From NCBI GenBank assembly GCA_963811515.1, contig CAWERI010000008.1, forward strand, positions 120,471 to 184,470: a stretch of DNA of 64,000 bases, given 5' to 3'. Of this stretch, positions 10,323 through 27,729 are shown one piece after another. The notes below the pieces were generated by a model. It saw only the letters and a program-made list of their open reading frames with translations, did no database searches and was not told where the DNA came from. Origin of the DNA: an uncultured Actinomycetota bacterium (GTDB lineage: Bacteria; Actinomycetota; Actinomycetes; Propionibacteriales; Nocardioidaceae). Made by a program: the position numbers and the translations under genes. Positions within the stretch are counted from its first letter, which is position 1. The number at the start of each line of letters is the position of its first letter.

Positions 10323-10428
10323 GAACCTCACGGGTCCGACAGTAGCCCGGCAGCTGCCGGCGCACGGGGCCACGGATGTGACCTGGGGCACGCAGGCGCG
10401 CCCGACCGTCACCTCGTAGACTGGGCGC

Positions 10429-11429
10429 ATGACTTCTGCAGCGCTTGCCGACGGCTTCGGCCGGGTCGCGACCGACCTGCGGGTGTCGCTCACCGACCGC
10501 TGCAACCTGCGGTGCTCCTACTGCATGCCGGCCGAGGGCCTGGACTGGCTGCCCAACGACGACGTGCTCACCGACGACGAGGTCGTCCGGCTGATCACGA
10601 TCGCGGTGGAGCGGCTCGGCGTGCGCGAGGTGCGGTTCACCGGCGGCGAGCCGCTGCTGCGTCGCGGCCTGCCCGACATCGTCCGTCGTACGGCGGCGCT
10701 GCGCCCGCGTCCGGAGACCTCGATCACCACCAACGCGCTGGGCCTGACCCGCACCGCCCAGGCGCTCGCGGAGGCCGGCCTCGACCGGGTCAACGTCAGC
10801 CTGGACACGGTCCGCGCGGAGGACTTCAAGACCATCACCCGCCGCGACCGCTTCGCCGACGTCGTCGCGGGGCTGGCCGCGGCCGCCGAGGCCGGGCTGG
10901 GACCGGTCAAGGTCAACGCGGTGCTGCTGCGCGGCATCAACGACGACCAGGCCCCCGAGCTGCTGCAGTGGTGCATGGACCGCGGACTACGAGCTGCGCT
11001 TCATCGAGCAGATGCCGCTCGACGCCCAGCACGGCTGGAGCCGCGAGGCGATGGTCACCGCCGACGAGATCTTCGCCTCGCTGGGCACCGCGTTCGTGCC
11101 TGGAGCCCGCCGAGGAGCCGCGGGGGAGCGCGCCCGCCGAGCTGTTCACCGTCGACGGCGGCCCGCACACCGTCGGGGTGATCGCGTCGGTGACCCGGCC
11201 GTTCTGCGGCGACTGCGACCGGGTGCGGCTGACCGCCGACGGCCAGGTCCGCAACTGCCTGTTCGCCCGCGAGGAGAGCGACCTGCGCGGCGCGCTGCGC
11301 GGCGGTGCCGACGACGCGGAGATCGCCCGCCGCTGGCAGGCCGCCATGCTGACCAAGCGACCCGGCCACGGCATCGACGACGTCACGTTCCTGCAGCCCA
11401 GCCGCCCGATGTCGGCCATCGGCGGCTGA
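10429..11429 (+). CDS. moaA: GTP 3',8-cyclase MoaA (radical SAM), frameshifted
   Basis: [16 protein letters not shown] (CxxxCxxC), FTGGEPLLR, and a C-terminal Cys cluster [21 protein letters not shown] are present. There are two frame breaks near 10980 and 11100. Confidence 0.8.
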
Positions 11430-11485: not shown

Positions 11486-12049
11486 ATGCGACTGTTTGCT
11501 GCGATCGTGCCGCCGCGCCCCGTCCTCGACGAGGTCCGGGCCGTGGTCGACTCGGTCCGTCCGACGGCCGCGGAGCCGGCCCCGAAGCGGGGCCTGTTCT
11601 CCCGGCTCGGCGGTCGCGGGGCGCGTCGTCGAGGAGCAGACCAACGACGAGCTGACGCAGCCGCCGGTCGACCTGATGTACCTCCCGCTGACCGGCTTCG
11701 GCAACGTCACCCTGGGCGACTCGGTCCACCTGGCCAAGGCGCTGCGCACCGAGGCCCTCACCTGGGCCCCGCCCACCCTGCACATCGCCGGCGGCACCGC
11801 GCTGGAGTTCAAGGGCGACGAGTCGGTGTGGGCGAAGCTCGACGGCGACATCGACGCGCTGAACACCATCGGCCGCGGGGTCCCGCAGATCGTGCAGCGG
11901 CTCGGCTTCTTCGTGGACCGCCGCCAGTTCCGCCCGTGGCTCGAGGTCGGCACGATCACCGACGCCACCACGGCGCCGTACCTGCAGGCCGTCGTGGACG
12001 CGCTGGAGGCCTTCCACGGCCGGTCCTGGAGATCGAGCGATCTCGCTGA
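11486..12049 (+). CDS. 2H phosphoesterase / 2'-5' RNA ligase (LigT/ThpR-like), one frameshift
   Basis: MRLFAAIVPP N-terminus and two H-x-T/S-like segments (PLTGFGNVTL, PTLHIAGGTA). The 3' end is uncertain, between 12049 and 12123. Confidence 0.5.
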   Translation: MRLFAAIVPPRPVLDEVRAVVDSVRPTAAEPAPKRGLFSRLGGRGARRRGADQRRADAAAGRPDVPPADRLRQRHPGRLGPPGQGAAHRGPHLGPAHPAHRRRHRAGVQGRRVGVGEARRRHRRAEHHRPRGPADRAAARLLRGPPPVPPVARGRHDHRRHHGAVPAGRRGRAGGLPRPVLEIERSR

Positions 12050-12119
12050 TGAAGCGCCTGCCCGACGCAGGGGCCGGACGCCTTCGAGGAGATGGAGCGG
12101 ATGCCGCTCGCTCCCGCCG

Positions 12120-14487
12120 CTAGACCGACGGGGCGACGCCGGGCCGGGTCGCGCTGGGGGTCGGCCGGCAGCGCGCGGTTCTCCGCGATCACCTTGACCA
12201 GCTGGTCGAGCGGCATCGGCCGGTGCATCAGGTAGCCCTGGGCGAACGGCGCGTGCACGTGGTCGCGCAGGTGGTCGAGCTGGCTGGCCCGCTCGATGCC
12301 CTCGACGACCACGTCGAGGCCCAGCGCCTGGCCCATCATCGTGATCGAGCACAGCAGCGCGCACGAGCGCTCGTCGCGGTCGATGCTCTCCGAGAACGAC
12401 AGGTCGGTCTTGATGATCTGCACCGGCATGTCCTGCAGGTAGCCGATCGAGGAGAAGCCGACCCCGAAGTCGTCGATGGCGAACGGCACGCCGCGGTCGG
12501 CCAGCGTGGTCATCGCGCTCATCGAGGCCGGGTCGTTCCCGATGCCGTCGCGCTCGGTGATCTCCAGGACCAGGTCGGCGCCGTCCATCTTGGCCATCGC
12601 GCGCTCGACCTTGGCGACGAAGTCCGGCTCGCGCAGCTGCTTGGCGGAGATGTTCACGCTCACGTTGAAGTCGCCGCCGGCGGCCTGCAGCGATCACCGC
12701 GGCGTCGCGGGCGGCCTGCTCGAGCACGACGTCGCCGAGCGCGACCACCAGGCCGGTCTCCTCCGCGACCCGGATGAACACGTCCGGGGGTACGTCGACG
12801 CCGTTGGACTTCCAGCGCGCCAGCGCCTCGACGCCGGTGATGTAGCCGGTGGAGGCGCGGACGACGGGCTGGTAGACGAGGGTGAGGTCGCCGGCCGCCA
12901 CGGAGGCGCGCAGCGACTCCACGAGCTCGAGGCGCTGGAGGCGCGAGCGGCCGATCGCGCGTTCGTACTCGACCCACTGGTTCTTGCCGCGCGACTTGGC
13001 CTCGTACATCGCCAGGTCGGCGTTGCGCAGCATGCTCTCGGCGGTCTCGCTGCTGTCGCCGAACGCCACGCCGATGCTGGCGGAGAGCGCGAGCTGGTGG
13101 CCGGCGACGTGCGCGCCGCGGGAGAGCGCGGCGAGGATCCGGTCGCAGGCGGTGCTGACCTCGGGCGGGTGCACGTCCTCGAGCAGCAGCGCGAACTCGT
13201 CGCCGCCGAGCCGGGCCACGGTGTCGCTCTGCCGCACGCAGCTCGGTGAGCCGCTGGGCCACGTCGATGAGCACCGCGTCGCCGGCGGCGTGGCCGAAGC
13301 GGTCGTTGACCGGCTTGAAGCCGTCGAGGTCGACGAAGAGCAGCGCGATCCGGTTGCCGCGCCGCCGCGACATCTGCAGCGCGTGCTCGACCCGGTCGAG
13401 CAGCAGGCCGCGGTTGGGCAGGTTGGTGAGCAGGTCGTGGCGGGCGAGGTGGGTCATGTCCTCGGTCAGCCGGAGCCGGGCGAAGGCGTCGGAGGAGACC
13501 GCGACCATCGCCTCGAGGGCCTGCTGGTCGGCGGTGGTCGTCGACCGGGCCCGGTGCTGGCCGGGCGCCACGATCCAGCGGTCCCGCTGGCCGTCGCGCA
13601 GCTGGGCGCCGACCTCGTGGGCGCCGGGCGGCGTGGACCGGACCTCCACCTGCTTGATCCGCAGCAGCCGGCGGGCGTCGTCGATGAGCGCGTCGACGAC
13701 CTGGCGGGTGTCGGAGAGCGTCTGGGCCCGGACGGCCGCGTCGAAGAGCACGCTGAGCCGGCGGGCGTTCTCGCTGCCGCGGTTGACCGCGCGGGTGGCG
13801 ACGAGCAGGGTCGCCAGCGGGACGGCGAGCAGCAGGAGGGTGTACCACTCCAGGCTCGCGAGCGACCACGGCGCCGAGGTAGCCCAGGGAGTCGAAGGGC
13901 ACGAAGCAGGCGATCGCGAAGAGCGTGCCGCGCTGCACCAGGTGACCCGCGGACCGGGGTGTCGGTCTCGATGGCGACCGAGACCGCGGAGAGCAGGAAG
14001 TCGGTGGCGAAGTAGCAGCGCCGCCGCCAGGGCCACGGCGAGCAGCTCGCGGAAGCGTGCCCTCGCCGTCGGGCCGCGGACCTGGGCGACGACCGCCGCG
14101 GCGACCGCCGCCGCCGAGGATCCCGACGCCGATGTTGAACAGCTTGACGGCCGGCCGCTTGTCGGTGGTGATCTGGGTGACCAGCACGCCCAGCGACCAG
14201 ATCAGCAGGGCCTCGTAGGGGCTGTCCAGCGTGCAGAGCAGGAACATCAGGATGCTGGAGTCGAAGCCGACCTCGATGCCGCCCTCGCCGCTGTCCAGGA
14301 CCATCGGGAACTTCGCGATGATCACGATCAGCGGGACGCAGACAGGGCCAGCCCGTCCATCTGGACGCCGTCCTGCGAACAGCCGGACCGTCGACCAGAC
14401 GACCACGCAGCAGCCCCGACGAGCGAAGACGCCGAGGTCGAACCAGCGGCTGCGCGACGAGATCAGCGCAGCGAGCGGTCGAGCCAT
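12120..14487 (-). CDS. Membrane sensor - GGDEF - EAL c-di-GMP signalling protein, several frameshifts
   Basis: N-terminal polytopic membrane region (FPMVLDSGEGGIEVGFDSSILMFLLC). GGDEF domain with RHDLLTNLPNRGLL, LLFVDLDGFKPVND and RLGGDEFALLLE. EAL domain with LVYQPVV, FAIDDFGVGFSS and EGIERASQ. There is a GGAGGA RBS at the 14487 start. Confidence 0.7.
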
Positions 14488-14556
14488 GAGTCCTCCGGTT
14501 CCTGGTGGGCGAGCACCAGTATCCGGCAAGGACGCGACCCGTTTGGTGGTTTTCGG

Positions 14557-17209: not shown

Positions 17210-18903
17210 GTGACTTCCGCACTCGTCGAGCTCCGGGTCCTCGAAGGACCGAACCTCTACTTCCCGCGCGCCGCGATCAAGCTGACCCTGGACCTGACCC
17301 AGCTGATCGACGCGCAGGAGTGGGTGGCGCATGCGGTTCGCCTCCCGGATCGGCCTGCGCAAGGCCCGTCCCGGCGAGCCGGGCAGCGGGTTCCGGCAGC
17401 GGTTCGCGGCCCGGGCCATCGAGCGGCTGGTGCGCCAGATCGCGGCGGAGGCCGGCACCACCCGGCTCGCGCGTCCGGGTCCGGCCGACCAACGACGTGC
17501 ACCAGATCGTGGTGGCGTACCCCTGGCGCAACCGGACCCGCGCCCAGGCGCTCGGCCGGGCCGTCGCCGAGGTGCTCGACTCGCTGCTCAGCCCGGACCT
17601 CGAGGAGCTGGTCAGCCACGCCGCCGAGTCGGTGCGCGCCTCCGAGCGCCGGCCCCGGGCCCACCACGCTGCGCCCGCGGGTGCCGATCGTCGCGGTCAC
17701 CGGCACCAACGGCAAGACCACGACGTCGCGGATGGTCGCGCACATCGCCCGCACGCACGGCCTGCACGTCGGCTGGTCGAGCACCGACGGCATCTACGTC
17801 GACGGCGAGCTGGTCGAGCCCGGCGACTACTCCGGCCCCTCGGGCGCCGGCCGGGTGCTGGCCCACAAGCAGGTGCAGCTCGCGGTCACCGAGACCGCCC
17901 GCGGCGGCATCCTGCTCAAGGGCATCGGGCTGACCCACAACGACGTGTCGGTGTTCACCAACGTCTCCGCGGACCACCTCGGGCTGCACGGCATCGACAC
18001 CCTCGACCAGCTCGCCGAGGTCAAGGGCGTCGTGCCCCGGATCACCAAGGCCCGACGGCTGGGCGGTGCTGAACGCCGACGACCCGCGGGTCTACGCGAC
18101 GCGGACGTCGATCAAGGCGAAGCCGTGGGTGTTCTCCCGCGACCCCGACTCCCCGGCGATCCGGGAGACGCTGTCGCGACGGCGGCCGCGCGACCACCGT
18201 CATCGACGGCTGGCTCTCGGTGCTCTACCCCGACAGCGACGCCGACCCGCTGGTCGAGGTCGTCGACATCCCGATGACGCTGGCCGGGCTGTCCCGCTTC
18301 AACGTCGAGAACGCGCTCGGTGCCGCGTCGGCGGCGCTGGCGGTCGGGCTGCCCCGCGAGGCCGTGGTCGAGGGGCTGACGTCGTTCCGCCCCGACCCGG
18401 CGCACAACCCGGGCCGGATGAACTTCTTCTCCCGCGACGACGTCAGCGTGGTGATCGACCTCGCGCACAACGAGGCCGGCCTCGAGGCGCTGCTGGAGAT
18501 CATGAACGGCGTACGTCGCCCGGCGCCCGGCTGCTGCTCGGCCTCGGCGCGGTGGGGGACCGGCAGGACGACCTCGTCGACCGGCTCGGGGAGATGGGCG
18601 CCCGCGACGCCGACGTCGTGGTGGTCGCGCACAAGGAGAAGTACCTGCGCGGCCGCACGACCGAGGAGCTCGACGCGCTGTTCCGGTCCGGTGCCGCGCG
18701 GGTCGGGCGTCGAGGACGTCCCGTCGTACCCCACGGAGGTCGAGGGCTGGCCGCGCTGGTCGAGCAGGCCGGGCCCGGGGACGTCGTCGCGCTGATGTGC
18801 CACGAGGACCGCCAGGGCGTCTACGACTGGCTGGCGGACCACGGGCTTCACGATCGACGCCCCCGAGACGCTGCGCGACAAGGTGCGCGCGGCGTCGGCT
18901 CAG
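17210..18903 (+). CDS. Cyanophycin-synthetase-like protein with CphA N domain plus Mur-ligase M domain and no ATP-grasp domain, heavily frameshifted
   Basis: N-terminal VELRVLEGPNLYFPRAAIKLTLDL and VHQIVVAYPWRNRTRAQALGRAVAEVL parallel the N domain of the bona fide CphA in this window. They are followed directly by IVAVTGTNGKTTTSRM, GGILLKGIGLTHNDVSVFTNVSADHLGLHGIDTLDQLAEVKG, LNADDP and IDLAHNEAGLEALLE. No ATP-grasp segment lies between them. At least four frame breaks. Confidence 0.6.
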
Positions 18904-20153
18904 GCCTGAGGCCGGCCGACCAGCTCCGGGTAGTACTCGCGGGGACGGCCGTCCCGGTCGCGCAGCATCCGGAGCTTGCTGGTCGGCTGCTCGATGAGCC
19001 GGAAGCTGACCCAGCCGACGGCGACCGAGCCGAGCAGCACGATGGTCACCGTGAGCGGCAGCGCCTGGTCGGCGCGGCCGATCAGGCCCCAGTGCTGGAA
19101 CAGCATCATCAGCGGCTCGTGCCACATGTAGGTGCTGTAGCTGATCAGGCCGAGCCAGGTGATCCCGGGCCAGGACAGCATCCGGGACCACAGCTGCCCG
19201 GGGGCGCCGAGCACGGTGCTGGCCATCAGCAGGAACCAGCCGACGGCGGCGAAGTCGTGGAACACGACCTGGCCCCAGGTGCCCGGGTCCGACAGCAGCG
19301 CTCCGCCGAGCACGACGCCCACGCCGAGCCAGCGCGACCAGGGCCGGGGCGGCGCCGGGGAACAGCGGCCGGCCCTGGCGGGCGGCGGCGACCACGGCGA
19401 GCAGCATGCCGGCGCCGAAGGCACCGAAGCGGGCCTGCGGGCCGAAGTACGCCGGCCAGTTGTCGAACGGGATGTCGAGGACCAGGAAGGCCACGGAGTT
19501 CCAGACGAACGGCGCGACGGTCAGCACGGCGGCCCCGGTCGGCGAGCAGCTGCACGCGGCGGCGGCGCGAGCCGATGCCGCGCGCAGGCGCGCACCGCGA
19601 GCGGGCCGAGCAGCACCAGGACGCCGTAGAAGATCACCTCGAGGCTCATCGACCAGGTCGGGCCCACGGTGTAGAAGATCCGCTCCCGGTCGAAGACCTG
19701 CAGGAACAGCAGGTGCTCGACCAGGTCGAGCCAGTCGCCGGGGAGCGCGGGGTTGCGGATCGCCCACACGACGGTGACGCCGATCCAGTAGAGCGGCAGG
19801 ATCCGGACCGCCCGTCGGAACAGGAACTGTCCGGCGGGGCGCGCCGGCGTGCGGTCCAGCGCCGCGCGGGCGTAGGACAGGGTCAGCAGGTACGACGACA
19901 TCAGGAACAGGATGTCGACGGTCTCGAAGCGGGCGAGGGCGCCCAGCACCGGGTTGAGCGTGCGGCCGCTCTGGGCGGCGTACTGGAAGACGTGGAAGAC
20001 GACGATGGTCAGGCCCACGAGCCCGCGGTAGCCCTCGAGCTCACGGGCGCGCCCGCGGCTCGGTGCGCCCTCGGGGGACCGGAGCGGGCCGGAGCCGGAT
20101 GCGGAGTCGGTGGGGGTGACGTCGGCGGGACGGTCGGTGCTCAGCGTGGTCAT
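18900..20153 (-). CDS. Acyltransferase family 3 (OatA/OpgC-like membrane O-acyltransferase), frameshifted
   Basis: MTTLSTDRP start, ELEGYRGLVGLTIVVFHVF, multiple TM segments, and C-terminal ISYSTYMWHEPLMMLF. Its start codon overlaps the upstream GT2 stop (ATGA). Confidence 0.65.
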
Positions 20154-22462
20154 GCGCTCACCTCCTGGTGGTCGCGTGCGGTGTCGGTGGTGCGGTCGGT
20201 CGTGCCGGCGGAGCGCGGGGTCACGTTCCACTGGGCCTCCCCGACCAGCTCCTTGACCTGGGCGATCCGGCCGATGATGTTCTTCCACTCGGTGTAGACC
20301 AGCGAGGACACCAGCAGGTGGCTCCAGAACCAGGAGGAGCGCTCCCGGATCTCGGGCACGGCCAGCCGCCAGGCGAACAGCGTCTGCGCCGGGCCCACGG
20401 CCAGCGTGAACAGCGTGGTCAGCAGCAGCGCGGGGGCCAGCCAGTTCAGCTGGGTGATCCCGCCGTCGCGGTAGGCCGTGTAGGCGAGCACCGGGAACAT
20501 CTGCAGCGACAGCCAGGGGTAGATCTCGCGCCAGCCCAGCAGGAACGCCAGCCCGCCCTTCTGGCGGACGCTCAGGTGCGGCGAGGCGATGGTCAGCCGC
20601 AGGTGCTTGCGGGAGACCTGGAACCAGCCCTGGGCCCAGCGGGCGCGCTGCTTCCACAGCGACGTCACGTTGGTCGGGGCGAGCTCGTAGGAGATCAGGG
20701 CCGGGTCGGAGGCGATCTTCGCGCCGGCGGCGAGCACCCGCAGGGTGGAGTCGATGTCCTCGGTCAGCATCGAGCCGTGCATCCGGGTCTCGGCCAGCAG
20801 GCTGGTGCGCCAGTAGCCGTTGGAGCCGCCGAAGAGGCCGAAGCCGTGCAGCGCCGCGCGGCCGGGGTGGCTGACGGCGTAGATCGACTCGAACTCGACC
20901 GCGACCGTGCGGGCCACCAGGGACGCGTCCCCGTTGCGGATCACGCAGTGGCCCTGCACGACGTCGTACCCGTTGGACAGCCAGCGCCACGCGCGCTTGA
21001 AGGCGCCCGGCTCGGGGTGGTGGTCGGCGTCGAACATGCCGACGAACTCACCGGTGACGTGGCTCATCGCCGCGTTCACGTTCTGCGCCTTCGAGGTGCT
21101 GTTCTCGACCTTGAGCGGCAGGATCCGCGGGTCGCGGCGGGCCATCTCCCGCAGCTCGTCCTCGACGGCCATCGGGTGCGGCGTGTTGTAGGCGACCAGG
21201 ATCTGGAACGGGCCGGGGTAGTCGACCCGCTGGAAGGCCTCGACGGTGTCGACGATCGTGGCGGCCTCGTTGGGGAGGTACGCCGCGATCACCGCCGTCG
21301 CGCCGGGGTGCGGGGCTCCGGGCTCGTCCGGCGGCCGCTGCGGGTCGAGGGCGTAGAACCCCTCGAGCCAGATCGCGCCGGCGGTGACCAGCAGCGCGGC
21401 CATCACCACCCAGTAGGCGATCCCGGAGACGTCCCAGCCGATCGCGCCGAGGGCGAAGTAGCCAGGAACGGCAGGCCCACGCCCAGGACCAGCGTGAGCA
21501 GGAACTGGGCGGGCAGCCGCAGCCGGTTGCCCACGGTGGCGGCGGACCGGCGGATGCGGCCCGGCCCGCGACGGTCGAGGTCGGTGGCCGGCTCGAGGGC
21601 CGGGGTCCACTCGACGGGCAGCAGGTCGAGGTGGTCGCCGGCCACGCGGACGGCCGTCAGGGCGCGGTCGCGCAGCTGCTCGCCGCTGGAGGCGGCGGCG
21701 AAGGGGGACCACCCGGTCACCGGGGTCACCCGGACGACGTCCTCGTTGCCGAGGGCGAACCGGGTCGCGGCGATCCGGCGGGCCAGGGCGCCGAGCCGCC
21801 GCTCGACCTCCTGGGGGCCGGACTCCGGCAGCAGCACGAGCAGCCGGCCGTCGCGGTCGAGGCCGGCCCGCTCCAGCGCCTCGGGGGAGTCGGCGATCAG
21901 CTCGGTGACCTGGGTCGCGATCTGGGTCGCGGCGCCGCCACCGAAGCGGTCGAGCAGCCGCGGCATCTCCTGGAACTCGACGATCGCCGAGCCCGCCGTT
22001 GCGGCGGGCGCGGTGGCCGCGCTCGAGCTCGCGGCCGGCCTCGTCGACGAAGGTGGTCTCGGCGAGCAGGCCGGTGCGCAGGTCACGGCTGACGAGGGAG
22101 GCGGGCACCGGGGGGCGCGCGGTCTTGGAGCGCACCCGGGCGGCGAGCTCGACGCCGGAGACGGTCGGGCGGCAGGCAGTCGTCGGCGCCCAGCTCCAGC
22201 CCGGTCAGCACCTCGTGCTCGTCGCCGCTGGTGAGCAGCAGCACCGGGACGGTGCGGCCGGGACGCGCCTCGCGCAGCCGCCGCAGCAGGTCGAGCCCGT
22301 CGGGGCCGTCGCCGCCCACGGAGGCGACGACGACGTCGGGGCGCAGCCGCGAGAAGGCCGCGATCGGGTGCTCGTCGGGACGCGGGCCCCGACGACGAAG
22401 CCGGCGGCCCGGAGGGCCGCCCGGGCCTCGTCGGCGAAGGGGCTGTCGTCGACCAGCAGCAC
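20150..22462 (-). CDS. Receiver domain - degenerate GGDEF - processive family-2 glycosyltransferase (cellulose/PNAG-synthase-like), frameshifted
   Basis: GTG start VLLVDDSPFADEARAAL and GGDGPDGLDLLRRLREARPGRTVPVLLLTSGDEHE form the REC domain. ERAGLDRDGRLLVLLPESGPQEVERRLGALARRIAATRF ... VTPVTGW aligns to a GGDEF domain with the GG(D/E)EF motif lost. The TM region is followed by a GT2 core with DADH, TED (LTEDID) and QRARW motifs. Confidence 0.65.
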
Positions 22463-22557
22463 GGTCGAGGTGGTCGTCGGTCGGGGGTCTCGTCCGGAGT
22501 GGCGAGGGGTGGTGCGGTCAAGGCTGTCACTCGGTCTCCTCTGGCAGGGTGGTCACG

Positions 22558-23978
22558 ATGGACGTTCGGGAAGGTGGTCGCGGCGCGGCCCGCAGCGGGC
22601 TCGGTCGTACGGCGCTGGCCGTGGCGGTCGTCTGGTGCTGTCTCGTGGCCGCGTGCACGTCGACCACCCGGGAGGGCGTCCCGCTCCGCACCTGAGGTGC
22701 GGGCCTGGGTCACCACGGCGTCCGGCAGCCAGAAGCTGTCCGACCGTGGTCCGGTCCCGTCCTTCGCCGGAGGATCCGGCGAACCCGACATCGTCGTCGA
22801 GAACGGACGACGCTACCAGCAGTTCTTCGGGGTCGGCGCATCGATCACGGGGTCCTCGGCCGTGTTGCTCGACACGTTGCCGGACGACGTGCGCTCACGT
22901 GTGATGCGCGACATCTTCCAACCAGGGCAGGGGATCGGGCTCTCCGTGCTGCGCCAGCCGCTGGGCGGCAACGACTTCTCGACCAGCGACTTCTCCTTCA
23001 CCCCGGGTCGTGACGAGGACCACGTGCTGCCGCTGCTGACGGAGGCCGCCCGGCTCGACCCGTCACTGGCGGTGGTGCTCAGCCCGTGGAGCGCGCCGGC
23101 CTCGATGAAGACCAGCGGGTCGCTGGTCGGCGGGTCGCTGCGCCCCGAGGACGCCGGTGCCTACGCCGACTACCTGGTCGGGGCGGCGCGCGCCTACCTC
23201 GACGCCGGCGTCCCCGTGCGCGGGCTGACCGTGCAGAACGAGCCGAGCTACTCGCCGCCGTCGTACGCCGGGATGACGCTGGACACCGAGCAGCAGCGCA
23301 CCCTGCTGCGCGACCACGTCGCGCCGGCGCTGCAGCGGGCCGGCCTGCGGCTGCACCTGTGGGCGCTCGACGACAACTTCGACCGCTGGCCGGACGCCGA
23401 CGCGCTGCTCTCCGACCCGGCCACCCGGCGGGCGGTGTACGGCGTCGCGTTCCACTGCTACCGCGGGGACGTGTCGGCGCTCCGCGAGCTGCGGGACCGG
23501 CACCCGGGACTCGCGGTCGTCGGTCAGCGAGTGCAGCGGGGGAGCCTGGTCGCAGGGCTTCGCGCGCGAGCTGCGCTACGAGGCGCACACGATGCTCGTC
23601 GGCGCGGTCCGCAACGGTGCGGCCTGGCTGGTGAAGTGGAACCTCGCCCTCGACCCGCAGGGCGGGCCGACCAACGGCGGCTGCCAGGACTGCCGCGGCC
23701 TGGTCACGGTGGACCCGGCCACCGGCACGGTCACGCCCGGCCCGACGTACTACGCGTTCGGGCACCTGGGGCGGTTCGTGACCCCGGGTGCGCGGGTGAT
23801 CGGCGCCACGGCCCGGACCGGGTCGCGGCTGGACACCGTCGCGTTCCGGAACCCGGACGGCTCCCACGTGCTGGTCGTCTTCAACGACGGCAGCACGCGG
23901 GACGTCCGGGTCGACACCGGCGACCGGAGCTTCGGCTACCGGCTGCCGGCGGGGGCGCTGGCGACGTTCACGTGGTGA
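22558..23978 (+). CDS. Glycoside hydrolase family 30 lipoprotein, frameshifted
   Basis: Lipoprotein signal ALAVAVVWCCLVAAC. FFGVGASITGSSAVLL, LTVQNEPSY (acid/base Glu region) and VTVDPATGTVTPGPTYYAFGHLGRF (C-terminal beta-sandwich) are spread over three frames. Confidence 0.6.
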
Positions 23979-26725
23979 AGTCGGGGTCGCCGACCGGGCC
24001 GTCGGCGCTCGTCCCGGAGCCGGCCTGGGCCTGGTTGGACCAGTTCTCCAGCTCGGCCATCACCGTGGGGTGCTTGTCGACGCAGACCACCACGAGGTCG
24101 CCGGGGTTGGCGCGCGACATCGCGTGCCGGACCGCCTCGATCTCGTCGAGGATGATCTCCAGCTGCTTGCAGCGCGCGCCCGCCTCCCGGCTGGACCGGA
24201 CGCCCTCGGCGACCAGCGCCGCGGTCTCGCCACGCTTGCGGCCGCGCAGCGACACGTCCTCGCGGACCACCACGACGTCGAAGTGCTGGGCGGCGATGGC
24301 GCCGAGCTCGCGCATGTCGTCGTCGCGCCGGTCGCCGGCGGTGGCGATCACGCCGATCCGGGACGGACGGCCCAGCTCGCTGGTGGTCGCCATGCTCTCC
24401 CCGACCCGGTCCACGAAGTCGCCGAGCGCCTTCATGCCCGGGGCGTTGTGGCAGTAGTCGACGATGACCTGCACGCCGTTGACCTCGACCTCGTTGAGCC
24501 GGCCGGGGGAGAGGTAGTAGCTCGTGGAGAAGGTCCGCAGGCCCTGCCGGATGTCGTGCAGCGGTGCACCGGCGGCGAACGCCGCGGCAGCCGCGGCCAG
24601 GGCGTTCTGCACGTTCATCCGGGCCTTGCCGCCGAACGTCGCGGGCAGCAGGTGGGTCCAGGCGAGCTGCATCTCGCGGCGACCGTGCTTGACCACGATC
24701 ATCTCGCCGCGGTCGCTGGGCTCGAGGACCAGCGCCTTGCCGCCGCGGCGGCAGTGCGCGTCGATCATGTCGCGCTCCTCCGAGCCGGGCTCGGACATCG
24801 AGAACCAGACGACCTGCCCGGAGCACTTGCGGCGCATCGCGCGGACCAGCGGGTCGTCGGCGTTCAGCACGGCGTGGCCGTCGCGCGGGACCGCCTCGAC
24901 GATCACCGCCTTGACGTCGGCGAGCTGCTCGACGGTGTCGATGCCGCGCAGGCCGAGGTGGTCGGGCTGCACGTTGAGGACCACCGCGACGTCGTTGCGC
25001 TCGTAGCCGAGGCCCTCGCGCAGGATGCCGCCGCGGGCGACCTCGAAGACCCCGAAGTCCACGCGCGGGTTCTGCAGCACCATCCGGGCGGACTTCGGCC
25101 CGGACGCGTCGGAGCGGATCACCAGGCGCTCGTCGATGACGACGCCGTCGGTCGAGGTCATGCCGACCTTGCGGCCCATGCCCTTGAAGATGTGCGAGAT
25201 CATCCGCGAGGTCGTCGTCTTGCCGTTGGTGCCGGTGACGGCCACGATCGGGATCCGGCTCGGGGCACCGGGCGGGAACAGCATGTCCACGACGGGCTTG
25301 GAGATGAACTGCGGCTCGCCGATGGTCGGGTGCGTGTGCATCCGGAAGCCCGGGGCGGCGTTCACCTCGCAGATCGCGCCGCCGGTCTCGCGGACCGGCT
25401 CGGTGATGTCGGGGCAGATGAAGTCGATGCCGGCGATGTCGAGGCCGACCATCCGGGCGGCCTCCTCGGCGATCTCGACGTTCTCGGGGTGCGCCTCGAA
25501 GGTGCGGTCGATCGAGATGCCGCCGGTCGACATGTTGCCGGTCAGGGTGAGCTTGACCGTCTCGCCCGCGGGCGGCACGTCGCCGAGCTTGTAGCCCTGG
25601 TCGGCGAGCAGCGCGACCGCGGCGTCGTCGACCTTGATCCGGGTGAGCACCTTCTCGTGGCCGACGCCGCGGCGCGGGTCCGCGTTGGTCAGCTCGACGA
25701 GGTCCTCGATGCTGGTCTGGCCGTCGCCGATCACGTGCGCGGGCACCCGCTCGGCGACCGCGGCGAGCCGGCCGTCGATGATCAGGCAGCGGTAGTCGCG
25801 GCCGGTGATGTAGGACTCCACGATCACGATGCCGCGACGGGACTGGTCCTTGGCGATCGGGAACGCCTCGCGGACGTCGTCGGCGTCCTTGAGGTCCAGG
25901 CAGACGCCCCGGCCGTGGTTGCCGTCGAGCGGCTTGACGACGACCGGGAAGCCGATCCGCTCCGCGACGGTGGCGGCCTGGTCGGCGGTGCGCACGGACT
26001 CCTGCTTGGGCACCGGGAGGCCGGCGGCACCGAGCAGCCGGGTGGTGAGGTCCTTGTCGGAGGCCACGTCGACGGCGATGGCGCTGGTGGCCGACGTCAT
26101 CGTCGCGCGGATCCGCTTCTGGTGGACGCCCTGGCCGAGCTGCACCAGCGAGTGCTGGTTGAGCCGGATCCAGGGGATGTCGCGGGAGACGGCCTCGTCG
26201 ATGATCGCCTGCGTCGAGGGGCCGAACGACGTGCGCTCGGCGCGCAGGATGAAGGCCTCGCGCTCCTTGTCCCAGTCGAACTCCGGGTCGGCCTGGACGA
26301 GGTGGTTCACCAGGCGTACGGCGAGCCGGGCCGCCGCGATGCCGACCTGCTCGTCGACGTACCCGTAGACGATGTTGTAGCGGCCCTTCTGGCCCTTGAC
26401 CGAGCGGGTCTTGCCGCGCCGGATGTCGTGGCCGACCTCCTGCTGCAGCGCCAGGGCGGCGTGCTCGGCGACGTGGCCGAGCCAGGTGCCCTCGTTGAGC
26501 CGCTCCACGAAGCCGCCGCGCCGGCCGCGCGAGCAGGAGTGCTCCCGCAGGCCGGGCAGCAGCTGCAGCAGGTTGTCGGTGAACCCGCGCCAGCGTGTTG
26601 GTCGGGAACTCCTCGAGCGACCCGAGGTCCACGACGAGGTGGATCGCCTTGTCGTAGGACCAGACGTTCGCCCCGCGGTAGACGCGGGTCTCGAGGATCG
26701 ACAGGTCGGGGGACGGGGTGCTCAT
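23968..26725 (-). CDS. cphA: Cyanophycin synthetase CphA (N domain, ATP-grasp G domain, Mur-ligase M domain), one frameshift
   Basis: An 846-aa uninterrupted frame carries the ATP-grasp region (GFPVVVKPLDGNHGRGV) and the M domain (IVAVTGTNGKTTTSRM, VLNVQPDHLG, VIVDYCHNAPG). About 70 further N-terminal residues (MSTPSPDLSILETRVYRGANVWSYDKAIHLVVDLGSL) are in an adjacent frame, with a single break near 26575. Confidence 0.85.
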
Positions 26726-27729
26726 GTGTGATCTCCTTCGGCCGACTGGCGGGCACGGCGGCGCCGCAGCACGGTGGGTGAGATGTCGCCCGCGGCGATG
26801 TCCCGAGCCAACCGTTTCAGGTCGCGTCCCGCAACCGCGAGCTCCTCGGCCTCGCCGGGGTCGACGACCGGCGCCTGGCGCACCAGCGTCTTCTCGGTCA
26901 GGTTGAACACCGAGCCGGCCGGCAGCACGTGCAGGACGACGCCGGAGGCGAGCAGGGGAGCGGTACGACGGGCCTCGTGCGCGTTCGACACCACGTTGCG
27001 GCCGTCGAACACGGTCACCACGCCGCGGCCCACGACGCGCATGATCTCCGCGCCGTCCTCCTCGGTGATCACGGCGCCGGTGTCCTCGTCGACGCCGATG
27101 CCGAGCAGGCCCGGGCTCTGGGCGACGAGCATCAGCAGCCGGCCGTAGCGGTTGCGCTGCCCGAAGTGCTGGTCGATGACCACGTCGCGGATCAGCCCGA
27201 GGCCGGCCGCGAGCTGGGTCATCCGCTGCTTGGGGGTCGAGCCGCCGGTGCCGAAGGCGACCATGTGCGAGGACTGGATGCTGGCGCCGGCGCTGGTGCC
27301 GCCGACGACGACCCCGCGGGCGTGGGCGGCCTTGATGGCCTCGCCGAACGCGGTGCCGTTGACGATCGCGGACAGCTTGAGCTGGTTGCCGCCGGTCATG
27401 AAGATGCCGGTGACGTCGTCGAGCAGGCCGACGACGTCGGGGTCCTCGGCCTCCTCGCGGCTCTCCGGCCGTGCGGCGACGACGTCGGCCGCGCCGAGCT
27501 TGCGGAACAGGGCGTCGTACACCTCGACGACCTCGGGTCCCAGCGAGCTCGCGGTCGGGATGACGGCGATCTTGGCGTCGGCGCCGCCGGCGAGGGAGAC
27601 GAAGGTCTTGAGCACCGTCCGGCGGCCGAGCTTGTCCTCGGCACCGCCGATGGCGATGAGTGGTCCGGGTCCTGAGGGGGAGTCCTGTCTGTCGATGTCG
27701 GCTTCGCGGGCATCTGGACCGTTCGGCAT
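26722..27729 (-). CDS. cphB: Cyanophycinase CphB (peptidase S51)
   Basis: Intact frame from MPNGPDARE. PLIAIGGAEDK, the catalytic Ser region GGTSAGASI, and QHFGQRNRYGRL are present. The stop overlaps the cphA start (ATGA). Confidence 0.85.
   Translation of the reverse strand: MPNGPDAREADIDRQDSPSGPGPLIAIGGAEDKLGRRTVLKTFVSLAGGADAKIAVIPTASSLGPEVVEVYDALFRKLGAADVVAARPESREEAEDPDVVGLLDDVTGIFMTGGNQLKLSAIVNGTAFGEAIKAAHARGVVVGGTSAGASIQSSHMVAFGTGGSTPKQRMTQLAAGLGLIRDVVIDQHFGQRNRYGRLLMLVAQSPGLLGIGVDEDTGAVITEEDGAEIMRVVGRGVVTVFDGRNVVSNAHEARRTAPLLASGVVLHVLPAGSVFNLTEKTLVRQAPVVDPGEAEELAVAGRDLKRLARDIAAGDISPTVLRRRRARQSAEGDHT

Follow-up and report, generated by a model that had tools for sequence, protein, structure and literature searches.

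A candidate exopolysaccharide module built around a receiver, degenerate GGDEF and glycosyltransferase fusion in an uncultured Nocardioidaceae bacterium

The locus and the architecture of the synthase

We analyzed a 64,000-nucleotide stretch of DNA (the window) from an uncultured bacterium of the Nocardioidaceae (assembly GCA_963811515.1, contig CAWERI010000008.1, positions 120,471 to 184,470), in which one large gene encodes a putative processive glycan synthase of glycosyltransferase family 2 (GT2) with an N-terminal signaling module. An acyltransferase-3 (AT3) gene follows it, and a lipoprotein of glycoside hydrolase family 30 (GH30) is transcribed divergently from its other side. As argued below, the three genes probably form a synthase-dependent exopolysaccharide module. 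Their features, in window coordinates, are as follows.

18900..20153, minus strand: AT3 membrane protein (Pfam Acyl_transf_3), with 1-bp insertions at 19579, 19538 and 19336
20150..22530, minus strand: whole synthase gene (pseudo-receiver, degenerate GGDEF and membrane GT2), frame-corrected against the intact homologue P0001
20213..21307, minus strand: GT2 catalytic domain with C-terminal membrane and interface helices; motifs AAYLPNEA 21286-21263, FDADHHP 21034-21014, LTEDIDS 20767-20747, QRARW 20650-20636 and WNVTPR 20230-20213
21310..21525, minus strand: two predicted transmembrane helices between the signaling module and the GT domain (AlphaFold2 helices 332-370 and 376-401 of P0001), with RLRLPAQF at 21525
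21594..22090, minus strand: degenerate GGDEF-fold domain (dGGDEF); RDGRL 21855-21841 at the GG[DE]EF position, conserved terminal HLDLLPVEW 21633-21607
22103..22117, minus strand: RPPVP linker from receiver helix 5 to the GGDEF-fold domain, nearly invariant in the family
22120..22462, minus strand: degenerate receiver (REC) domain; motifs VLLVDDSPF 22462-22436, DVVVASVGG 22337-22311, VLLLTSG 22244-22224 and GADDCLPP 22190-22167
22558..23978, plus strand: GH30 lipoprotein from the ATG at 22558, frameshifted near 22695 and 23520; lipobox LVAAC 22642-22656, acid/base NEP 23231-23245, nucleophile Glu in VSECSGGAW at about 23529, CxxC loop 23676-23699

In the window, the coding sequence of the synthase is divided among three reading frames of the minus strand. 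The reference for its correction was the metagenomic contig L006, whose DNA is 93% identical and encodes the intact 795-aa protein P0001; because tblastn of P0001 against the window returned a single-frame high-scoring segment pair of 66% in which the frameshifts were masked, the DNA alignment to L006 was used instead. Within the gene, the window lacks one base near 22389 and another near 21463, and has one extra base at each of 22166 and 21986. These four 1-bp indels sum to zero and leave no in-frame stop once corrected. In the N-terminal extension, a fifth indel is indicated by a 22-bp gap near 22475. The corrected product is one protein of 770 aa when read from the GTG at 22462, or of ~793 aa from the GTG at 22530. 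The latter appears the likelier start, because GAGGAG precedes it and its N-terminus (V-T-A-L-T) matches the M-T-A start of P0001 and of a second intact orthologue, P0002. With this start, the gap to the divergent GH30 ATG is 27 bp and not the 95 bp of an earlier first-pass annotation, whose description of a divergent lipoprotein otherwise stands; the divergent gene is conserved in the clade.

P0001 is also the best homologue of the corrected protein (94% identity over 100% of the query), and intact single-frame orthologues at 79-94% identity keep both neighbors, the overlapping AT3 gene and the divergent GH30 lipoprotein. Pfam profiles matched the corrected protein at residues 1-110 (Response_reg, 46 bits) and 386-612 (Glyco_tranf_2_3, 80 bits). 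The Pfam GGDEF profile had no match in the window copy, whereas orthologues at 50-57% identity exceed its gathering score (47, 45 and 33 bits). An AlphaFold2 model of P0001, built from a 97-sequence family alignment, reached a predicted local distance difference test (pLDDT) score of 89.6 and a predicted template-modeling (TM) score of 0.82; its ~300 N-terminal columns were aligned by Foldseek to the REC-GGDEF proteins WspR, DgcR and PleD, with TM scores of 0.45-0.50 to WspR and DgcR. Taken together, the profile matches, the GGDEF matches of the orthologues, the model and the Foldseek alignments establish a single polypeptide of three domains, in which both the receiver and the GGDEF-like segment have the fold of, and homology to, their namesakes. 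The REC and GGDEF-like segments do not belong to a separate upstream open reading frame, since P0001, P0002 and hundreds of homologues of 750-800 aa are intact single genes. The motifs first quoted for the GT2 and for the replaced GGDEF site all lie within this gene, although its frame reads through only after the indels are corrected.

Compared with L006, the synthase has a dN/dS of 0.13 (REC 0.18, dGGDEF 0.16 and GT2 0.11). All three domains are therefore under purifying selection.

Receiver decay, relay genes and the GGDEF-fold domain

The receiver of the window copy keeps the DD pair, which follows strand 1, and the Thr of CheY-like domains. However, at the phospho-acceptor position, where strand 3 ends, Ser stands in for Asp (DVVVASVGG), as had been suspected on first inspection, and the conserved Lys after strand 5 has given way to Pro (GADDCLPP; LPPT in the corrected reading). 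The domain accordingly falls outside the phosphorylatable receivers. In an alignment of 108 family sequences, the acceptor column contains Asp in 90, Ala in 8 and Ser in 7, and the Lys column Lys in 83, Arg in 17, Thr in 4 and Pro in 2. The intact orthologues P0001 and P0002 carry the same substitutions.

A protein search returned 1211 homologous clusters, nearly all of 750-800 aa and of the same architecture, from Actinomycetota (Geodermatophilus, Kineococcus, Cellulomonas, Actinotalea, Streptomyces and Mycolicibacterium) and Chloroflexota; database entries label the members 'response regulator' or 'glycosyltransferase'. A scan of one genome per species gave at least 568 matching stretches and added Acidobacteriota, Gemmatimonadota and Dormibacterota. 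Among the matches listed, the nearest genomes were metagenome-assembled genomes (MAGs) of Nocardioidaceae and Marmoricola.

We scored 83 non-duplicate loci with hidden Markov models (HMMs) built from the neighboring genes, counting genes within 6 kb of the synthase and taking a receiver as canonical if it has the acceptor Asp, the Lys and a DD or ED pair. Relay genes here are those for a histidine kinase, a stand-alone receiver or an Hpt protein.

Canonical receiver, 39 loci: relay genes at 26, AT3 at 14, GH30 at 7
Degenerate receiver, 44 loci: relay genes at 0, AT3 at 43, GH30 at 12

The difference in relay genes is highly significant (Fisher's exact test, P = 3e-12). In the degenerate group, the AT3 gene lies directly downstream of the synthase in all but one of the loci listed. 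GH30 genes adjoin the synthase in Nocardioidaceae-like MAGs, Geodermatophilus, Cellulomonas, Motilibacteraceae, Acidimicrobiales and Gemmatimonadaceae. Representative gene orders are as follows.

Geodermatophilus obscurus: GAF-PAS kinase, stand-alone receiver, synthase, Hpt, convergent GH30
Kineococcus: PAS kinase, receiver, synthase, Hpt, AT3
Cellulomonas aerilata: GH30, synthase, kinase, receiver, Hpt, AT3
Anaerolineae MAG: synthase, GAF kinase, receiver

The same HMMs found no histidine kinase, Hpt protein or stand-alone receiver anywhere in the 64-kb window. The first-pass annotation had proposed that a phosphorelay feeds into this synthase; for this copy the proposal finds no support, given the Ser and Pro substitutions, the lack of relay genes in the window and their lack at all 44 loci of relatives with degenerate receivers. 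Because the acceptor Asp, the Lys and the relay genes have all been lost in the clade of the window copy, its receiver is most simply regarded as a phosphorylation-independent pseudo-receiver.

A second pattern of decay was found in a Streptomyces clade (29 loci among L037-L084), in which the DD pair has become G-A or G-T, the Lys is Glu or Asp, and the acceptor position holds Asp or Leu. There, the AT3 gene always follows 18-285 bp downstream, and relay and GH30 genes never occur. Since these substitutions differ from those of the window clade, receiver decay appears to have taken place independently and more than once.

In P0035, from Chloroflexota, the entire REC-dGGDEF module is tandemly duplicated before the GT2, which suggests that the pair behaves as a single evolutionary unit. 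The lengths of four further Chloroflexota proteins (P0048, P0054, P0059 and P0084; 1090-1180 aa, P0035 included) fit a duplication of this type, these four being known by length alone.

In the GGDEF-fold domain, the replacement of the catalytic motif reported in the first-pass annotation was confirmed. RDGRL occupies the GG[DE]EF position in the window copy and x-x-G-R-[FL] in the family, and a catalytic GG[DE]EF is absent from every member examined (108 proteins, 86 loci). By visual inspection of the family consensus, other residues also seem to occupy the positions at which active cyclases bind GTP, guanine and metal. A phmmer search with the in-frame piece of the domain against 1.84 billion representatives gave two matches at E <= 0.001 and was uninformative on the origin of the domain. 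The N-terminal module is probably a fossil response regulator of the PleD/WspR type, in which cyclase activity was lost before the radiation of the family.

Could such a fossil, perhaps together with the pseudo-receiver, be a cyclic di-GMP (c-di-GMP) receptor fused to the synthase, in the role that PilZ plays in BcsA or that is played by PelD and BcsE? The first-pass annotation favored this interpretation, and precedents exist: PelD and BcsE are degenerate-GGDEF receptors, and BcsE regulates a GT2 synthase with a pair of incompetent REC and GGDEF domains (PMC8892547; PMC8461298). The purifying selection on the dead domains would fit such a function, and the loss of phosphorylation in the window clade leaves room for another input. 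The Kineococcus locus is flanked by c-di-GMP genes, and in the window a genuine GGDEF-EAL gene is found ~6 kb away from that of the synthase, with an orthologue at the equivalent relative place in L001, a 1.1-Mb contig carrying a 79%-identical synthase.

11956-14500, minus strand: membrane GGDEF-EAL protein; the GGDEF motif is intact and follows an RxxD (RQSD...GGDEF), an EAL domain is present, and the frame is broken as in the adjacent genes

The organism therefore encodes c-di-GMP signaling in this neighborhood. An Rfam scan of the whole window gave no match, and the window thus contains no c-di-GMP riboswitch or other known RNA. However, PelD and BcsE bind c-di-GMP through the RxxD of the I-site (PMC8892547; PMC8461298), and this motif is absent here. 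At the I-site position, five residues before the GGDEF position, the window protein has EALE and the family x-P-L-[ED], with no Arg, and a conserved RxxD was not found there in any of the four clades. A clade-by-clade inspection of the rest of the REC-dGGDEF region detected no conserved RxxD at a plausible site, the only R-x-x-[DE] columns found lying away from the I-site position. Because the RxxD of PelD and BcsE is missing, the receptor interpretation loses its support in the sequence. Moreover, the canonical members already have a complete and dedicated phosphorelay input. We consider a fused c-di-GMP receptor improbable.

Catalytic domain, partner proteins and the predicted polymer

The motifs that led the first-pass annotation to a processive GT2, namely D, DxD (DADH), TED and QxxRW (QRARW), were all located. 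DxD, TED and QRxRW are present in 87 of 87 aligned sequences, and AAYLPNEA, SKAQN.N, FDADH.P, FGGSNG.W, LTEDID, QRxRW.QGW and the C-terminal W-x-V-T-P-R are invariant or nearly so. As in solved synthases, the GT-A domain is set among transmembrane and interface helices. The synthase thus belongs to the processive membrane GT2 class, and by its sequence lies outside the active cyclases, the I-site receptors, PgaC and BcsA. It would be a membrane-embedded enzyme of the BcsA, hyaluronan synthase or PgaC type that uses a UDP-sugar to polymerize a beta-linked glycan, the chain passing out through the membrane channel of the enzyme itself. W-x-V-T-P-R resembles the FxVTxK gating loop, which holds UDP in BcsA (PMC8892547); it follows the last amphipathic helix, in a segment modeled with low confidence (pLDDT 45-64).

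An assignment to poly-N-acetylglucosamine or cellulose synthesis was considered and rejected. The GT2 scored 77 bits against the PgaC/IcaA model of NCBIfam (TIGR03937, cut-off 422) and 47 bits against BcsA/CelA (TIGR03030, cut-off 699), and the partners PgaB/PgaD, BcsB and PilZ are absent.

The AT3 protein matched Acyl_transf_3 over the full membrane domain (77.5 bits against a cut-off of 31; profile positions 3-324 of 326). No NCBIfam equivalog was found for the synthase, the AT3 protein or Hpt, the best AT3 match being one of 23 bits to SucT, and a PDB sequence search with AT3 gave no match. Its ATG at 20153 overlaps the synthase TGA (20152-20150) as ATGA. This coupling, part of the first-pass description, is real, recurs in L001 and L006, and is conserved in the clade. 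The translationally coupled AT3 protein may O-acylate the emerging chain at the outer face of the membrane.

The GH30 protein has the lipobox LVAAC, and eleven GH30 orthologues, including one from Gemmatimonadaceae, have comparable ones. Its best PDB match, over the full length, was 5NGK (E = 4.6e-61; next match, 7.7e-45), which is BT3312, a GH30_3 endo-beta-1,6-glucanase of Bacteroides thetaiotaomicron (PMC5481569). Conserved BT3312 residues comprise N237, E238 (acid/base), E339 (nucleophile), D131, W179, W345, W377 and the pair C393/C396, part of the loop that gives the beta-1,6-glucan cleft its U shape (PMC5481569). Because GH30 keeps the catalytic Glu pair and most of the residues of the -1 and -2 subsites of BT3312, beta-1,6-glucan is the most likely product; our best guess from these sequence comparisons is a beta-1,6-glucan bearing O-acyl groups, or else a glycan that contains beta-1,6-glucosyl linkages. 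Anchored to the outer face of the membrane, the lipoprotein would trim or release the chain.

Two further observations concern GH30. At L007, L009, L013, L015, L016, L017, L019 and L020, a second GH30 paralogue is encoded near the lipoprotein, within 6 kb of the synthase; where its N-terminus is readable it has no lipobox, and in some cases it starts with an ordinary signal peptide or with an extended stretch that is basic and rich in Pro. In Cellulomonas aerilata (L004, 6272-7897, plus strand), the gene immediately upstream of that of the synthase encodes a 541-aa protein for which no Pfam match is recorded and which scores 553 bits with our GH30 HMM. Since this protein was matched by the HMM only, precomputed annotation under-reports the association with GH30.

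The same data bear on another possibility, that the GT2 is a processive synthase of glycolipids or cell-envelope glycans (similar to GT21 or ceramide glucosyltransferases) and that GH30 is a glucosyl-lipid hydrolase similar to the GH30_1 glucosylceramidases. Several family members indeed match Pfam Glyco_transf_21 weakly (23-26 bits), and SrfJ and human glucosylceramidase are the next-best PDB matches of GH30 after BT3312. However, Glyco_tranf_2_3 is matched far better (80-91 bits), the multi-helix membrane domain and the motifs QRxRW, TED and that of the putative gating loop superpose on polymer-translocating synthases, and GH30 keeps the CxxC loop of the beta-1,6-glucanase. Human glucosylceramidase (GBA) is not known to have this loop. 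A role in glycolipid synthesis therefore seems unlikely to us.

Interpretation of the module

The window has a G+C content of ~72%, and 1-bp indels interrupt many of its conserved genes, among them MoaA, an InhA-like gene, the cyanophycin synthetase gene cphA, a gene for an ABC ATPase and a Mur-ligase-like gene. Where measurable, their rate is ~1 per 300-1000 bp, and housekeeping genes are broken across the window. Examples are as follows.

10410-11426: MoaA
16402-17173: InhA-like gene
17210-18900: Mur-ligase-like gene
26586-26725: cphA

The assembly thus looks unpolished, and any reading of the window based on open reading frames requires frameshift-tolerant methods. Because similar 1-bp indels affect conserved genes throughout the window, those of the synthase are best read as assembly noise and not as gene decay. 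That the synthase is a decaying pseudogene with real frameshifts, and the module a relic, might be supposed from the four or five frame-breaking indels in 2.4 kb and from the lost receiver residues, but we regard this as highly improbable in view of the equal indel density in MoaA, the InhA-like gene, cphA and other conserved genes, the zero net length change and open frame of the corrected gene, its dN/dS of 0.13 against a 93%-identical intact orthologue, and the same receiver substitutions in intact P0001 and P0002.

Other genes adjoin the module on both sides.

17210-18900, plus strand: Mur-ligase-like paralogue of the C-terminal half of cphA, convergent into the AT3 gene
23953-27729, minus strand: cyanophycin synthetase and cyanophycinase pair, directly beside GH30

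In L001 the genes follow one another as in the window and none of them is broken (cyanophycinase, cyanophycin synthetase, divergent GH30, synthase, AT3 with a 4-bp overlap, Mur-ligase-like gene and enoyl reductase), so that the arrangement of the cyanophycin pair and the Mur-ligase-like gene is repeated there; no functional tie between these genes and the glycan module is evident. In 500-bp steps (21480-23980), nucleotide identity to L001, the closest long contig, is 70-76% over the REC-dGGDEF region and 72-74% over GH30, compared with 87-90% for the GT2 portion and 92-96% for the greater part of cphA. Few parts of this neighborhood evolve as fast as the regulatory module and the hydrolase.

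We favor, with a probability of roughly 0.6, the interpretation that the window contains a three-gene synthase-dependent exopolysaccharide module, composed of the processive GT2, AT3 and GH30, in which the receiver of the window clade has become a phosphorylation-independent pseudo-receiver. The fossil N-terminal module would now serve as an allosteric or dimerizing adaptor on the synthase and not as an enzyme, coupling the state of the receiver to polymerization. In the canonical relatives, the gene content suggests a relay from a GAF/PAS histidine kinase through a stand-alone receiver and an Hpt protein to the receiver of the synthase. The module would there be the end point of a dedicated relay, and phosphorylation would thus act as a post-translational switch of polymer synthesis, probably through release of the W-x-V-T-P-R gating loop. 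For the window clade, the pseudo-receiver may be locked in one state, or may answer to a partner or a ligand; because the module is still under purifying selection, it presumably keeps a structural or sensing role. Of this picture, the architecture, the states of the motifs, the folds, the synteny, the association of receiver state with relay genes and the purifying selection were observed directly, and the sugar, its linkage, the roles in acylation and trimming and the gating mechanism are inferred.

Several observations weigh against this interpretation. Relay genes are lacking within 6 kb at 13 of the 39 canonical loci, and GH30 was found at only 19 of all 83 loci. The parallel with the BcsA gating loop is one of motif likeness only, and the sugar is unreadable from homology because the GT2 scores far below every NCBIfam equivalog cut-off. 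On the side of the hydrolase, the GH30_3-specific Asn244 is not conserved in the alignment, and the best NCBIfam model, that of BT3312 itself (NF053856), scores 253 bits against an equivalog cut-off of 700. The dead domains may have a non-canonical ligand site. Finally, no biochemical characterization of any family member was found in the literature.

A broader proposal is more tentative, and we offer it as a possibility that is rather doubtful at present. The REC-dGGDEF-GT2 proteins would be an unrecognized class of bacterial glycan synthases, possibly the long-missing beta-1,6-glucan synthase of actinobacteria. Their activity would be gated directly by a four-step His-Asp phosphorelay through a fossil cyclase domain and not by c-di-GMP, and in several lineages, among them the window clade and a Streptomyces clade, the switch would have been rewired independently to a phosphorylation-free pseudo-receiver with a sensing role. 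A literature search aimed at the REC-GGDEF-GT2 architecture found no paper, which agrees with the view of the first-pass annotation that the fusion is undescribed; however, the architecture is common in sequence databases, and a receiver joined to a BcsA-like glycosyltransferase is already a listed response-regulator type in Methanobacteriaceae (PMC5847659).

The closest known systems each share part of this design. BcsA also fuses a regulator to a processive GT2, but its PilZ domain is C-terminal, whereas the proteins described here carry REC and a dead GGDEF at the N-terminus and have neither a BcsB partner nor the RxxxR motif of PilZ. BcsE (GIL; E. coli-type cellulose secretion) similarly places an incompetent REC and an incompetent GGDEF at the service of a GT2 (PMC8892547), but as a separate cytosolic protein that binds c-di-GMP via RxxD on both domains; here the pair forms part of the synthase polypeptide and lacks RxxD. 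In PelD, too, a degenerate GGDEF controls a polysaccharide machine post-translationally (PMC8892547; PMC8461298), although PelD, a membrane protein in its own right (GAF-GGDEF), retains the RxxD, works with a GT4 and involves no phosphorelay. With PleD, WspR and DgcR the family shares the REC-GGDEF order and fold, and its canonical members keep the Asp, Lys, DD and Thr as well as cognate kinases; those proteins are diguanylate cyclases, whereas here GG[DE]EF and the I-site are missing and the output is the fused glycosyltransferase instead of c-di-GMP.

Proteins of the MTH_548 type from Methanobacteriaceae, in which one or more receivers are fused to a PF13641 glycosyltransferase, are listed among response regulators with enzymatic output; by that description they differ in having no intervening GGDEF-fold domain and in being confined to one archaeal family (PMC5847659). 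Lactobacillus gts/PdeB was rejected as a match, since its degenerate EAL receptor is encoded next to a BcsA-like glycosyltransferase and not fused to it. PgaC/IcaA is the best NCBIfam glycosyltransferase model for the family (77-82 bits), and PgaC likewise makes a beta-1,6 linkage and has a polymer-modifying partner, but PgaD/IcaD and a deacetylase (PgaB/IcaB) are missing from the locus and the partner hydrolase is GH30. BT3312 and the GH30 protein have in common the catalytic Glu pair, D131, W179, W345, W377, C393/C396 and their lipoprotein nature; they differ in that BT3312 is a nutrient-harvesting enzyme of a polysaccharide utilization locus, whereas the GH30 gene adjoins a synthase and its product does not conserve Asn244.

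To our knowledge, the post-translational control of exopolysaccharide synthases is understood almost entirely through c-di-GMP receptors such as PilZ, PelD, BcsE, PgaCD and Alg44. If our interpretation is correct, the family would represent a second control logic, in which a processive synthase is the terminal receiver of a dedicated phosphorelay and a dead cyclase domain is reused as the coupling element. The window copy, a degenerate and relay-less member in a noisy assembly, is itself of more modest value. The family as a whole provides a natural experiment, in which the phosphorylation site and the relay genes have been lost together, apparently on more than one occasion. Its members are common among soil Actinomycetota, with many Streptomyces among them, and among Chloroflexota, groups whose matrix polymers are poorly known, and its GH30_3-like partner offers a concrete guess at one such polymer, an acylated beta-1,6-glucan.

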